A DNA stretch of 64,000 nucleotides from Bacteroidales bacterium UBA4243 (GTDB lineage Bacteria > Bacteroidota > Bacteroidia > Bacteroidales > F082): the NCBI GenBank assembly GCA_002396205.1, contig DGXB01000098.1:11819-75818 (forward strand). The letters run 5' to 3'. The notes beneath the pieces are model-generated. The model made no database searches. It was not told the origin of the DNA and saw only the letters and a program-made list of their open reading frames with translations. The translations under genes were made by a program, and so were the position numbers. Of the stretch, positions 7,648-11,850 are shown piece by piece (the stretch's first letter is position 1; each line of letters begins with the position of its first letter).

Positions 7648-7665
7648 TTTGACCCACTTGTGTAC

Positions 7666-7713
7666 GCGGGGATTGAAATCGCCCGCTTGATTTCTTGTCG
7701 CTCTTTCAGGGCT
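7666..7713 (+). repeat. Bipartite double-hairpin repeat (~48 nt), copy A
   Basis: GCGGGG-attgaaatc-GCCCGC-ttgatttctt-GTCGCTCTTTCAGGGCT. It lies between the convergent ATP-grasp and DUF262-HNH genes. Confidence 0.8.
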
Positions 7714-7732
7714 TTTTGGTGGTAAATCCATA

Positions 7733-8872
7733 TCATTTCCCGCTCTTCCGCCTGTTACACTCGCGGCAGAGCATCTGGCAGTTGTCGGCAGTCGTCTTGC
7801 CTCCGGCGTGCCACGGCGTGATGTGGTCGGCTTCCATTTGGCTCAGCTCGAAGTGCTGGCCGCAGTCGGCGCAGAAACCCATCTGTCTTTCATATGCTGA
7901 CAATTTTTGCGCATCGGTGAAGGCTCGAATCGACAAATATTTCTCCTTGCGCGTAAGGATATAGGGATAAATGCCCGACTTTTTGGTCACGTCGTCGTCG
8001 AGGATGAGACGTTTCACTTCTTCATCAATGGCTTTGTAGTCAAACACTTGGTCCTTGTATTGCTTATAGAGCATTCCCCACTCCACACCTTTCATGATCT
8101 TCTTGCGCTCCTTGGTGGGACGGAAAGTGGTCTCAATCCAAGTGATGACCGACTGGAAAAACTGCCAAAGCGGCGCGGCGCTCGGGTCGTGCTGGTGGTT
8201 CGACATGTAGACCTCGATGTTGCCGTCCGAAATCCACGAGATGGCGGTTTCGAGGTAGTCCTGACGAATGGCGGAGCCGTTGAGGTAGTCGCTGCCAATC
8301 TTTGCGGCAGGGGCACCGTTTTTGCTGAAATAGCGTTTGGCGTCGCTCACCCACGAGCCGGCATACACCGCGTTGCGCAGCTCCTGCTCGGTGAGGGCCT
8401 CGCCCGCGATGTTGATGGTGCGGAACCACTTGAGCTTCTCGCTGTCGGTGCCGCTGCAGATGTAGACTTGCAGCGGGTAGTTGAGGATTTGCTCCTGCTC
8501 ATCGGGTTGGAGGTTGTGGAAATAGCGAAAGTTGAAGGCAAAATCGCCATTAACGTATTGGCAGATGCTGATGGTGCGCTGCTGCCCGTCAATGATTTCG
8601 AAACTGGGTTCGCAACCGTCCCGGTTGCCACTTGCGGACGAGACGTCCGCGAACCCAGTGTCGCGCACGGCCCAATACATCACGTTGAGGGGGAAGCCCT
8701 GCGTGAGCGTGTCGATGACGGCATCGCGTTGTTTGTCCTTGTAGACGAACTCGCGCTGGTAGGGCGGGCGCACGTCGAGGCGGCCACCGTAGGCGCGCAC
8801 ACCGTTTTCGTTGTTGTCCACGTAGCCTTGTGTCAGCTCGCGGACGGTGATTTTGTGTAGTTCTATGTTCAT
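7733..8872 (-). CDS. DUF262 (ParB/Srx-like NTPase fold)-HNH endonuclease fusion
   Basis: 379 aa. The N-terminus carries PPYQREFVY and IIDGQQRT, the DUF262 DGQQR signature. The C-terminus carries CADCG...EADHITPWHAGGKTTADNCQMLCRECNRRK, a classical zinc-ribbon HNH. Confidence 0.85.
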   Translation of the reverse strand: MNIELHKITVRELTQGYVDNNENGVRAYGGRLDVRPPYQREFVYKDKQRDAVIDTLTQGFPLNVMYWAVRDTGFADVSSASGNRDGCEPSFEIIDGQQRTISICQYVNGDFAFNFRYFHNLQPDEQEQILNYPLQVYICSGTDSEKLKWFRTINIAGEALTEQELRNAVYAGSWVSDAKRYFSKNGAPAAKIGSDYLNGSAIRQDYLETAISWISDGNIEVYMSNHQHDPSAAPLWQFFQSVITWIETTFRPTKERKKIMKGVEWGMLYKQYKDQVFDYKAIDEEVKRLILDDDVTKKSGIYPYILTRKEKYLSIRAFTDAQKLSAYERQMGFCADCGQHFELSQMEADHITPWHAGGKTTADNCQMLCRECNRRKSGK

Positions 8873-8891
8873 ATTGCGTTCTGTTTATAGT

Positions 8892-8939
8892 GCAGGGACT
8901 GACGTCGCCTGCTTATGGGTCTGTCGCCCCTACGGGGCT
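8892..8939 (+). repeat. Bipartite double-hairpin repeat, copy B
   Basis: GCAGGG-actgacgtc-GCCTGC-ttatgggtct-GTCGCCCCTACGGGGCT. It lies in the methyltransferase/nuclease gap. Confidence 0.8.
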
Positions 8940-8960
8940 ATTCGGCTTGTCGTTTTTGTC

Positions 8961-9010
8961 GGCAGGGGTTCACACCGCCTGCCTACAGAAGCTGTCGCCC
9001 CTACGGGGCT
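8961..9010 (+). repeat. Bipartite double-hairpin repeat, copy C
   Basis: GGCAGGG-gttcacacc-GCCTGCC-tacagaagct-GTCGCCCCTACGGGGCT. It is preceded by ttttgtc, as copy D is. Confidence 0.8.
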
Positions 9011-9065
9011 GGGTGGATGCCCTCGGCATTGGTTGGAGGCCAGTAGGATATCCGCCCGATAGGGT

Positions 9066-9085
9066 CAGCGGGTCATGACCCGCTG
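9066..9085. repeat. Perfect 20-nt palindrome cagcgggtcatgacccgctg
   Basis: The sequence is self-complementary when read directly. It is part of the repeat cluster at 8885-9090, 15 nt from the methyltransferase stop. Confidence 0.8.
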
Positions 9086-9099
9086 TTGGCAAAGCCACG

Positions 9100-10146
9100 C
9101 TATCCTACCGACCCTCTTCCTTCCGCCGCCATCGTTGCAGGCATTTCATTCTGCATATAGGCCACTGGAGCGGGTTGCTTGCGGCGGATGAGGATACGCG
9201 CATAAGTTTCCTTGTTGTTGATCGTAAACCGATGTCCGTATTTCGGATTATCTTCCACATATCTATCCAAACCCATGATTTCAAACTGTTCAGGATTGTA
9301 TTTATCCAAAAACGTTATCGGTACACCCATCACGCCATAGTAATCCATTGGGATTTCAGCCGTTTTATCAACATTGATGGCATCATAATTGTCATATTTT
9401 GAATATTCTTCAGGATTATAGGTTTTAAAAAGAATCAAATCCTCGTGTCTCTCTTTATAATCCATATTTGTAAACCATCTTACACCTTTCACACGTATGA
9501 ATTTATTACCGTTATCATCTTCACGACAACCAGCAGCATTCAATGGATAATCTTTCGGAACTCCAAATTCTCTGTCTCCGCTATGAATGCTTGCCCCCAA
9601 CCATAGCTTGTTTGCCTTTATCAATTGGAAAGTCTCTTTATAGGAGACTGCATTCACATTACCGATAATCAAGAAAGATTTCTCGTACTTTATCAATACC
9701 TCAAGGAACTCCCTAAACAGCGAAAACGGCGGATTGGTCACCACAATGTCGGCCTCTTGCAGCAGCTCAACACATTCCTGCGAGCGGAAATCGCCATCAC
9801 CCTTGAAGTAATGGATGCCAATCTCCTCAGGGTCGGGCACACGATTGCCGTTGCGGTCGCCATAATACTCCAACCAAATCGCCTGCTCGGCATCGTTTTG
9901 GCTGAAAAGGTCACGGTTTTGGTTCTTGTAGCAAGTGGTGATCAACTTCTTCAGCCCCAATTGCTCAAAGTTGTAGCTAAAATAATGGAAAAAGTTGCTC
10001 ACGCGCGGGTCGTCGCAGTTGCAAAGCACCGTCTTTCCCTTGAAATGCGCCTTGTAATGCTTCAGTTCGTTCTCAATATCAACGAGTTGTGTATAAAACT
10101 CATCCTTTTTGGCGTTCTTCGCCTGGTTCAGGTTTTTGTTTGCCAT
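9100..10146 (-). CDS. N6-adenine DNA methyltransferase, EcoRI-methylase-like family
   Basis: 348 aa with an N-terminal KDEFYT motif, CNCDDP, and the catalytic NPPF in VVTNPPFSLF. The gene is visibly AT-richer than the flanking housekeeping genes. Confidence 0.8.
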   Translation of the reverse strand: MANKNLNQAKNAKKDEFYTQLVDIENELKHYKAHFKGKTVLCNCDDPRVSNFFHYFSYNFEQLGLKKLITTCYKNQNRDLFSQNDAEQAIWLEYYGDRNGNRVPDPEEIGIHYFKGDGDFRSQECVELLQEADIVVTNPPFSLFREFLEVLIKYEKSFLIIGNVNAVSYKETFQLIKANKLWLGASIHSGDREFGVPKDYPLNAAGCREDDNGNKFIRVKGVRWFTNMDYKERHEDLILFKTYNPEEYSKYDNYDAINVDKTAEIPMDYYGVMGVPITFLDKYNPEQFEIMGLDRYVEDNPKYGHRFTINNKETYARILIRRKQPAPVAYMQNEMPATMAAEGRGSVG

Positions 10147-10221
10147 CGTGATTGACAGTTTTTCGCACGGCTATCAATCACTTTTTCGGACAAAAAGAAA
10201 GGTGCAGGCCTTTCTATCGCA

Positions 10222-10331
10222 TTCACGGGGAGCGTCGGTGAACCCCGCTACCCTACTAGAAACTGCCCACACCTTAAACAGTGTGAGCATCAACTCTATG
10301 TAGGGTAACGGAGCTTTAACGCTTCCGTGAA
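10222..10331 (-). ncRNA. Candidate structured RNA: 110-nt rod-like hairpin in the 5' leader of the methyltransferase gene
   Basis: The minus strand reads ttcacgg-a-agcg-ttaaagct-ccgttaccctac-a-taga-gttgat-gctcacac-tgtttaag-gtgtgggc-agtt-tcta-gtagggtagcgg-ggttcaccga-cgct-cc-ccgtgaa. The stems are 7+4+12+4+8 bp. The non-Watson-Crick positions in the 12-bp and 8-bp stems are G.U on the minus strand and would be C.A on the plus strand. Confidence 0.5.
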
Positions 10332-10470
10332 ATTGCTTTTATCCGATTTTTCAAATCAAGAGTTTCCGACGCTTTTGTTTTGAATGCGAATAATAGCTAA
10401 TGCTTTGGTTTATACTATGTTAATTATTCTCTATTTTTATCTCTAACGATACTTTGGTCTTTATTTGGCG

Positions 10471-10478
10471 CAAAGATA
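10471..10478 (-). promoter_or_regulatory. -7 box TATCTTTG (methyltransferase operon, long leader)
   Basis: This is the only TAnnTTTG match I found on the minus strand upstream of ATG 10146. It implies a leader of about 320 nt containing the 10222-10331 hairpin. Confidence 0.4.
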
Positions 10479-10537
10479 GCGTATTTTTCTGATATTCGCA
10501 TTACAAATTCATAAAACCAATCTCCCTATCAATACTA

Positions 10538-10635
10538 TTTCTTCCATGAAAGAAGAATTTCAAGTTTTTCAAGAAAGTTTCTTCTATAAAAGAAATAATT
10601 CCTATTTTTGCAGAGAATTTCTTCTATAAAAGAAA
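10538..10635 (+). promoter_or_regulatory. Three palindromic TTTCTT-N6-AAGAAA sites bracketing the AAA/DUF4143 promoter (candidate operators)
   Basis: tttcttccatgaaagaag is at 10538-10555. Two identical 18-mers tttcttctataaaagaaa lie at 10578-10595 and 10618-10635. They sit either side of the -7 box TATTTTTG (10603-10610), and the last ends 6 nt before ATG 10642. Confidence 0.5.
10603..10610 (+). promoter_or_regulatory. -7 box TATTTTTG (AAA/DUF4143 gene)
   Basis: TAnnTTTG match, 31 nt before ATG 10642. Confidence 0.5.
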
Positions 10636-10641
10636 AACATT

Positions 10642-11850
10642 ATGGAAAACATCATTAGAAAACACTATATCAATAAGATAGAAAGATGTTTTGGCAAGGA
10701 AACCATCATTGTATTGACTGGCCAAAGACGTGTAGGTAAAAGTTTCTTACTAAGGCAATTACGCGATATAAAGCTGAACGAGGCCAACACCAATGTCATC
10801 TACATCGACAAGGAGAAAAGGGAGTTCGATTCCATCCAAACCTATCGGGAACTCAACGACCACATAGAGAGCCACTATCAAAAAGGGAAGAAAAACTACA
10901 TCTTTATTGATGAAATTCAAGACATTGAGGAATTTGAGCGCAGTATTAGAAGCTACCAAACAGAACCCGACGCAGAAATCGTCATCACAGGAAGCAACGC
11001 CAAGATGTTGAGCAACGAGTTGAGCACGCTCATCGGAGGACGATACAAAGAGATTTACATCCAATCGCTCAGCTACCAAGAGTTCCTCATTTTCCACAAC
11101 CTTACCGACAGTGACGATGCTTTGTCGCAATACATCCAATTCGGAGGTTTGCCCGGCCTCGTAAAAATCGGCCTTGAGGAAGACGATGCCCGCGAATATC
11201 AAATGGACATATACCACACCGTGCTCTTGAAAGACGTCATCATGCGTAACAAGATCCGCAATGTGACTTTTTTGGAAAATCTCGTGCGTTTTATTGCCGA
11301 CAACGCTGGCAAACTCATTTCGGCCAACAGCATTGCCAAGTTCATGAAGTCGCAAGGCGAAAACATCACTTCCACCGTGGTTTCCAATTACATCAACTAT
11401 CTCACGGAAGCCTACATCATCCACAAGGTGAACCGTTTCAACATCCATGGAAAACGCTTGTTTGAGAGCAACGACAAATACTATTTCGAGGATCACGGCA
11501 TCCGCAACGCATTGGCAGGAGGAAGTCGAGAAGGCGACATTGAAAAAGTGATTGAAAACATCATCTATCAACACCTTATTCATTTAGGCTACAGCGTGAC
11601 CGTTGGCCAACTGCAAGCAGGCGAGATTGATTTTGTATGTACGGCAAAAAATGGACGACGTTGCTACATCCAAGCGTCCTTCATCATTGCTGACGAAACC
11701 ACCCGCGAGCGCGAGTTTGGCAATCTACGAGCCATCAAGGACAACTATCCGAAATATGTGATTTCGATGACACCTCTCGTCACCCGGAACGACGACAACG
11801 GCATCACCCACCTTCATTTGCGGAAGTTTCTGATGGAAGGATTGGGATAA
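10642..11850 (+). CDS. AAA+ ATPase with C-terminal DUF4143 (AAA_14/DUF4143 family)
   Basis: 402 aa with Walker A GQRRVGKS and Walker B YIFIDEIQ. The C-terminal GEIDFVCT...YIQASF resembles the restriction-endonuclease-like DUF4143 module. Confidence 0.8.
   Translation: MENIIRKHYINKIERCFGKETIIVLTGQRRVGKSFLLRQLRDIKLNEANTNVIYIDKEKREFDSIQTYRELNDHIESHYQKGKKNYIFIDEIQDIEEFERSIRSYQTEPDAEIVITGSNAKMLSNELSTLIGGRYKEIYIQSLSYQEFLIFHNLTDSDDALSQYIQFGGLPGLVKIGLEEDDAREYQMDIYHTVLLKDVIMRNKIRNVTFLENLVRFIADNAGKLISANSIAKFMKSQGENITSTVVSNYINYLTEAYIIHKVNRFNIHGKRLFESNDKYYFEDHGIRNALAGGSREGDIEKVIENIIYQHLIHLGYSVTVGQLQAGEIDFVCTAKNGRRCYIQASFIIADETTREREFGNLRAIKDNYPKYVISMTPLVTRNDDNGITHLHLRKFLMEGLG

Follow-up and report, generated by a model that had tools for sequence, protein, structure and literature searches.

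Among the described systems closest to the locus analyzed here, DUF262 is discussed in the literature for the Type IV enzymes GmrSD, BrxU, and SspE, in combination with DUF1524. In enzymes of this type, the binding and hydrolysis of nucleoside triphosphates (NTPs) govern cleavage, and the DGQQR and QR motifs have been assigned to these NTP functions; analysis of GmrSD further indicates that ParB/Srx-fold domains may serve as nucleases or as DNA binders. In more general terms, COG1479/DUF262 has been described as "often fused to HNH" and as being associated with modification systems. Here, we analyze a pair of minus-strand genes in a 64,000-nucleotide (nt) stretch of the Bacteroidales bacterium UBA4243 genome (contig DGXB01000098.1, positions 11,819 to 75,818; hereafter the window, with positions counted from its first letter), in which an EcoRI-family DNA methyltransferase (MTase; gene M) is followed by a nuclease that joins DUF262 to an HNH domain (gene R). 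This pair very probably constitutes a two-gene restriction-modification (R-M) module of the Type II kind, in which the MTase protects against its cognate DUF262-HNH nuclease and in which an NTP switch may operate.

The gene pair and its linkage across genomes, plasmids, and phages

The M gene occupies positions 9100–10146 (minus strand) and encodes 348 amino acids (aa), the R gene occupies positions 7733–8872 (minus strand) and encodes 379 aa, and the gap between them is 227 nt. These open reading frame (ORF) coordinates and this gene order reproduce exactly those given in a preliminary description of the DNA, and the motifs quoted there (PPYQREF, IIDGQQRT, CADCG, DHITPW, and CRECN) are all found in the nuclease translation. 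The assignment of the MTase to the EcoRI family of N6-adenine DNA MTases, made there as well, is borne out by a full-length match to Pfam EcoRI_methylase (PF13651, model 1–345 of 345, E 2e-140, 468.5 bits against a gathering cutoff of 26.4), by an end-to-end match to the PADLOC MTase_II model PDLC03297 (E 1e-124), and by 52.9% identity to genuine M.EcoRI over 325 aa. Judged from its sequence, the MTase carries the complete EcoRI-family fold signature together with the catalytic TNPPF motif, at aa 137–141.

In the nuclease, Pfam likewise corroborates the proposed fusion, placing a DUF262/ParB-Srx-like domain (GmrSD_N, 5e-19; aa 34–170, positions 8363–8773, minus strand) ahead of an HNH ββα-Me domain (PF01844, 2e-14; aa 334–377, positions 7742–7873, minus strand). 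PF14279 (HNH_5) also matches this C-terminus, and there is no Pfam match to DUF1524 in the protein. The PADLOC REase_II model PDLC03418 covers the nuclease as a whole, with residues 1–379 aligned to model positions 1–372 of 372 (E 6e-133).

The two genes were then compared as neighbors in three independent samples, in all of which the M→R order is constant. On plasmids, full-length nuclease homologues found by tblastn (38–64% identity, eight regions with annotation) span Bacteroidota, Alpha- and Gammaproteobacteria, Actinomycetota, and Bacillota. Seven of the eight regions have an annotated "adenine-specific methyltransferase EcoRI family protein" immediately 5′ of the nuclease on the same strand, and the MTase of the eighth was detected by tblastn, making 8/8; M and R mostly overlap by 1–11 nt or lie a few nt apart, and in one locus optrA is wedged between them. 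The genome sample was drawn from one genome per GTDB species by a scan with a nine-sequence profile, and comprises the best 80 of at least 416 relatives (57–92% identity), ranging over Bacteroidales, Fibrobacter, Campylobacterota, Neisseria, Chloroflexi, Actinomycetota, candidate phyla radiation (CPR) phyla, and archaea. Every informative locus (77/77) has a same-strand EcoRI-family MTase upstream of the nuclease; the other three, with at most 54 nt of contig upstream, are uninformative. The metagenome sample was anchored on the noncoding leader upstream of the MTase and so was unselected for the nuclease, which is nevertheless present in 59/59 loci with the MTase and 1.5 kb or more of downstream sequence. 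Wherever upstream sequence existed in the genome and leader-anchored metagenome loci, no nuclease without an MTase was found.

The phage records extend this pattern, with the complete M–R pair in three of them (Flavobacterium phage laban6-1 and two gut phage contigs) and the MTase alone in mycobacteriophages (72% identity to the window MTase over 278 aa), as well as in Helicobacter and Campylobacter phages and a C. coli plasmid (phage records with the MTase alone or with the M–R pair: PQ362668, PQ362672, ON970624, and PQ159904; MN812211, MT835503, and MT838873). M is sometimes solitary and R never is, an asymmetry that would be expected of a restriction-modification system.

The preliminary description had left two readings standing, a methylation-protected restriction enzyme and a Type IV nuclease whose neighboring MTase is an unrelated orphan, and the comparison across loci separates them. 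The former is strongly supported by the invariant M→R co-occurrence, the overlaps, an M–R fusion, and the solitary phage MTases. The latter, in which the nuclease would be modification-dependent in the manner of GmrSD and would merely adjoin the MTase, draws on DUF262 being best known from Type IV GmrSD, BrxU, and SspE, and on weak partial matches to PADLOC mREase_IV, which arise via the HNH part only. It is, however, effectively refuted by the same synteny, with the M→R order fixed in 100% of the three samples, by the frequent M/R overlap, and by the one fusion protein; the nuclease has no DUF1524, and one that attacked the m6A product of its neighbor would be suicidal. We therefore consider the Type IV reading extremely unlikely. 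The fusion is a metagenomic polypeptide of 688 aa (P0404) in which EcoRI_methylase, GmrSD_N, and HNH follow one another; it is a lone gene call and could be an artifact of assembly or gene calling.

Some individual loci depart from the simplest arrangement. In the Chryseobacterium taklimakanense plasmid NZ_CP034172 (L002), the nuclease is intact and the upstream MTase consists of two tblastn pieces with no coding sequence listed; this MTase may be a pseudogene, and the locus hence an apparent R without a functional M. Additional same-strand genes stand between M and R in some hosts (L093–L095, L014, L020, L028, L032, L043, and L056), including Fic/DUF4172 and Bro-N/ORF6N-like ORFs, and the M/R junction is a hotspot for insertions. 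In the CPR/Gracilibacteria loci L045, L057, L066, and L073, in-frame TGA (alternative genetic code) breaks the standard ORF calls of both M and R.

The family to which the nuclease belongs is very large, with over 8000 clusters matched per search at 90% identity and 476 clusters at 50% identity (E ≤ 1e-30), nearly all of them of 360–400 aa, and public annotation of these homologues reads only "DUF262 domain-containing protein" or "HNH endonuclease". The pair is catalogued by PADLOC, and standard defense finders would label it "RM type II". Given that PADLOC Type II models cover both proteins and that the family is of this size, the framing of the pair as noncanonical and possibly undescribed was overstated: it is genuine and intact, and belongs to a Type II-like R-M family that is very widespread and already catalogued. 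The ParB-like DUF262 plus HNH architecture of its nuclease is, all the same, unusual among textbook Type II enzymes.

The DUF262 domain and the recognition site

Within DUF262, the window nuclease has the invariant residues Q39-R40 and D95-G-Q-Q-R99, along with about 17 extra residues, inserted at aa 74–90, that are specific to its lineage, and its HNH domain has C334, C337, D349-H350, N364, C369, (C372), and N373. The DGQQR and QR motifs, the D-H pair, both Asn residues, and three of the four Cys residues are invariant in nine diverse and 36 further aligned members (45 in all). The HNH part matches Gme HNH (PDB 4h9d, E 2e-6) and EcoKMcrA (6ghc), and the DUF262 part gives a weak profile match to BrxU (7p9k, E 0.16). 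An AlphaFold2 (AF2) model of the nuclease, built from a multiple sequence alignment of 36 sequences, has a mean predicted local distance difference test score (pLDDT) of 65 and a predicted template modeling score (pTM) of 0.39, with pLDDT above 90 in the HNH domain alone; a Foldseek search of this model against the PDB returned HNH cores alone. Residues 171–333 of the nuclease are helical and without a Pfam match, and form the obvious candidate for sequence recognition; no other DNA-recognition domain is recognizable in the protein.

Because the DGQQR and QR motifs are invariant, and by analogy with GmrSD, BrxU, and SspE, the DUF262 domain may gate cleavage through NTPs; taken alone, we regard this as a tentative proposal that could well be wrong. 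Appreciable weight, if less than even, attaches to the alternative that the nuclease is an orthodox Type II enzyme for which a divalent metal suffices, with DUF262 acting as a DNA-binding, sequence-reading, or dimerization module, or as a second nickase. Such an enzyme would fit the filing of the nuclease by PADLOC as a plain Type II restriction endonuclease (REase), the capacity of ParB/Srx-fold domains to be nucleases or DNA binders noted for GmrSD, and the lack of any other recognizable DNA-recognition domain, with aa 171–333 unmatched in Pfam. It sits less easily with the conservation of DGQQR and the upstream QR, which are the NTP motifs of GmrSD-type enzymes, in 45/45 aligned members.

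In the two-gene R-M module that we favor, the EcoRI-family enzyme would methylate adenine at N6 within a short specific sequence, and the DUF262-HNH protein, as its cognate endonuclease, would use the zinc-stabilized HNH site to cut DNA that lacks this methylation, such that we infer methyl-sensitive, sequence-specific cleavage. The DUF262 domain would most likely bind NTP and, in the manner of GmrSD and BrxU, couple the nucleotide and/or oligomer state to cleavage. A Bacteroidetes-type promoter ahead of a structured leader would probably initiate a transcript that runs through M and reaches R by read-through of the structured 227-nt spacer, giving M-before-R expression.

A hint to the recognition site comes from the MTase, as members of the same family accompany genuine R.EcoRI on small plasmids of E. 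coli, Klebsiella, and Leuconostoc, where the gene order is R→M. EcoRI-linked and nuclease-linked MTases share 45–62% identity, against 40–100% for the nuclease-linked MTases among themselves (the values at alternative-code loci are taken from sequences based on high-scoring segment pairs). The per-column conservation of the two sets correlates at r = 0.83, a single position discriminates between them, and their comparison gives no sign of a divergent target-recognition block. With M.EcoRI as the family prototype, and with nothing in sequence to separate both MTase sets, a GAATTC-like site is plausible for the window MTase. We note that the transfer of a motif between MTases commonly requires about 80% identity, a level below which the 52.9% identity to M.EcoRI falls, and that no site stands out in palindrome avoidance over the 80 hosts.

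The window itself shows avoidance of other sites across its 64 kb. GATC is present 76 times against 292 expected (an observed/expected ratio, O/E, of 0.26) and CTAG four times against 90 expected, the O/E values for CCGG and GTAC are 0.47 and 0.51, and the GC-rich 6-mers CGGCCG, CTCGAG, GAGCTC, and GCATGC are depleted as well. This avoidance of tetranucleotides and 6-mers suggests pressure from other R-M systems of the host.

Leader, spacer, and local allele history

Upstream of the M start codon lies a conserved structured leader of about 300 nt (positions 10147–10445, minus strand), which is conserved even where the M gene has diverged past DNA recognition. Its structure was assessed on twelve diverse copies with RNAalifold, slid-partner controls, and 500 shuffles. 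RNAalifold predicts 44 pairs in eight helices, two of which are long-range. Of the leader cells, 92.9% are paired, compared to 36–42% in the slid controls, and double-sided changes occur at 19 leader pairs, compared to 4–9; none of the 500 shuffles attains the observed values. A conserved hairpin (GATTGATAG/CTGTCAATC) adjoins the M ATG, and a terminator-like hairpin with a T-run is found at 10196–10215, about 50 nt ahead of this ATG. Searches of Rfam with the leader and with the M/R spacer returned no family at E ≤ 1 besides two noise matches.

Near the pair, this strand has a single −7 box of the Bacteroidetes (TAnnTTTG) type, TATCTTTG, at 10471–10478 (minus strand), likely the promoter of a leader-M(-R) transcript. 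It is also the nearest minus-strand box to the gap between the genes, in which, as the preliminary description had claimed, no TAnnTTTG box is present. A box of this type lies 55–146 nt upstream of the conserved leader block in 66 of 99 leaders.

A scan of metagenomes with the most conserved block of the leader yielded at least 119 loci, from gut and rumen, in 77 of which an EcoRI-family MTase follows (leader loci besides the window: L010, L011, L014, L019, L020, L030, L034, L046, L084, L089–L095, and L101–L219). In 18 metagenome loci, the full leader is followed by another gene; the genes headed in this manner include a C-5 DNA methylase, an N6/N4 methylase, a Type ISP-like Mrr_cat_2-ResIII-helicase enzyme, a family-2 glycosyltransferase, DUF2334, DUF3990, and lipoproteins. 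The leader may be a new cis-regulatory RNA. We also considered an invertible promoter (inverton) upstream of M, and rejected it since the inverted repeat concerned (10378–10392 / 10493–10507) occurs in the window only, with none comparable to it in 128 other leader-bearing loci.

The M/R spacer (positions 8873–9099, minus strand) is unusual in its own right, as M and R abut or overlap in most other hosts, unlike the 227-nt separation seen in the window. It has no ORF and no T-run terminator, and its predicted RNA fold is strong (−94.9 kcal mol–1, z = −4.7). Directly past the M stop, it holds a perfect 10+10 palindrome (CAGCGGGTCA/TGACCCGCTG, 9066–9085), the arms of which covary in relatives (CCGTAGGTCG/YGACCTACGG), and further along it holds two direct repeats of about 70 nt (8892–8939 and 8962–9010) with an exact 19-nt core, CTGTCGCCCCTACGGGGCT.

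In sister strains, the islet is located at the same chromosomal site, in the order transglutaminase-like gene, AAA_14/DUF4143 ATPase, M, a spacer of about 243 nt, R, ParD, ATP-grasp, and purA. The flanks, the nuclease, and the proximal spacer (window 9010→7737) are 88–90% identical in DNA to these strains, and the segment 9010–11849, comprising M and the ATPase gene, is essentially without DNA homology to them; one breakpoint of this segment falls on the second spacer repeat (8992–9010). As read from these identities, the M and ATPase segment is swapped relative to the sister strains, and the nuclease is orthologous. The window M, together with about 280 nt of leader, resembles a cassette that elsewhere has the arrangement M-Fic-R (about 80% identity in nucleotides, 89–91% in aa), and the nuclease encoded by that cassette is 85% identical to that of the window. 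Across the family, the pairwise identities of M and R correlate at r = 0.50, indicating therefore that M and R alleles have been reshuffled, which would be tolerable, and even expected, if members share one specificity.

The genes also differ in base composition. The preliminary description had called the islet AT-richer than its surroundings, which holds for the M gene (GC content at third codon positions, GC3, of 0.52) and for the ATPase gene (GC3 0.59) but not for the nuclease gene, the GC3 of which (0.77) is at the level of the flanking purA and ATP-grasp genes (0.75–0.79); overall GC is 0.44 for M and 0.56 for R. The M gene is also split internally, with GC3 of 0.67 over its first 450 nt and 0.41 over the remainder.

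These data raise the question of whether the window pair is still matched, since after the MTase swap the nuclease could be silent, attenuated, or inactive, and the MTase a de facto orphan. The lack of homology of 9010–11849 to sister strains that are otherwise 88–90% identical in R and flanks, the GC3 of 0.77 for R against 0.52 for M, and the structured 227-nt spacer in place of an M/R overlap would all be in line with such a loss. Set against this, the R reading frame is intact and retains all invariant residues, the sister strains retain the same spacer and an intact pair, and the incoming M allele stems from a like cassette (M-Fic-R), in which the nuclease is 85% identical to that of the window. 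Allele shuffling between M and R is, moreover, common family-wide, as the r = 0.50 correlation attests, and expected under one shared specificity. We find it improbable that the pair has come apart.

The surroundings were initially portrayed as housekeeping genes on both sides, a description that fits the nuclease side, with ATP-grasp and purA, but not the MTase side, where the neighbor is the AAA_14 and DUF4143 ATPase (10642–11850, plus strand). This protein matches the PADLOC candidate defense family PDC-S01 (E 7e-140). It was ruled out as a third component of the system, with just three weak matches among 96 loci. Three tandem 40-nt repeats (10529–10648) precede the ATPase gene, each of them holding the near-palindrome TTTCTTCTATAAAAGAAA. 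In the interval between nuclease and ATP-grasp, the window has an 85-nt gap (7648–7732) where the sister strains hold an 84-aa ParD-antitoxin gene (L089, 7200–7454).

Assessment and comparison with known systems

Several points weigh against the two-gene R-M module and have to be taken into account. Literature searches gave no biochemical or genetic characterization of an M and DUF262-HNH pair, and no study of its recognition sequence or cofactor was found in them. The 227 nt with strong RNA structure separate M from R, and co-transcription of the two is presumed. Compared to the closest relatives of the nuclease, M is 62–65% but R 83–92% identical at the protein level, with the cognate match being assumed. 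GAATTC is only mildly depleted, with O/E of 0.72 in the window and 0.78 in the pooled host loci, placing it mid-rank among palindromes. The AF2 model (pLDDT 65) is too poor for inspecting the DUF262 pocket. Finally, the derivation of the PADLOC REase_II model from characterized REBASE enzymes is presumed.

The linkage data argue for a very widespread methylation-protected system, in which the ParB-like DUF262, usually discussed for Type IV nucleases, is the standard partner domain of an HNH nuclease. Thousands of "DUF262 domain-containing protein" entries that adjoin an "EcoRI family methyltransferase" could accordingly be read as R-M pairs. If nucleotide binding does gate cleavage, Type II restriction would gain a mechanistically new subtype, and the EcoRI-type and DUF262-HNH nucleases would offer a clean case of nonhomologous nuclease replacement beside one methylase family. 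The modular leader, which in Bacteroidales of gut and rumen precedes R-M methylases as well as surface genes, would be of interest as a possibly new cis-regulatory RNA. One can go further and picture the DUF262-HNH proteins as a class of nucleotide-gated, methylation-sensitive, sequence-specific REases, with an NTP switch like that of GmrSD/BrxU or of ParB and CTP, that replaced the PD-(D/E)XK partner of EcoRI-family methylases, may act at a GAATTC-type site, and in gut Bacteroidales work with a methylase controlled by the leader RNA common to other R-M and surface-structure genes; in this full form, we consider the proposal rather unlikely.

The closest catalogue entries are PDLC03418 and PDLC03297 of PADLOC-DB, which both proteins match end to end and which give no site, cofactor, or role for DUF262. 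The EcoRI system resembles the DUF262-HNH pair in its MTase, which belongs to the same PF13651 family (52.9% identity, with TNPPF), and in forming compact two-gene modules on small plasmids, but the gene order is R→M there and M→R here, and R.EcoRI, a PD-(D/E)XK enzyme, is unrelated to the DUF262 and HNH nuclease. HNH-type Type II restriction endonucleases such as KpnI, MnlI, Hpy99I, and PacI share with the window nuclease a classical HNH ββα-Me domain, Cys zinc ligands, and a protective MTase partner. These enzymes are not known to have a ParB/Srx-like DUF262 domain. GmrSD, BrxU, and SspE, which are Type IV or PT-sensing nucleases, are alike in that an N-terminal DUF262 with DGQQR precedes a C-terminal His-Me-superfamily nuclease, but this nuclease is DUF1524 in their case and a PF01844 HNH in the window protein, and BrxU, at 587 aa, is longer than the DUF262-HNH proteins with their 360–380 aa. 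Above all, the DUF262-HNH proteins are always partnered by an MTase, which is the opposite logic to the modification-dependent restriction carried out by GmrSD, BrxU, and SspE.

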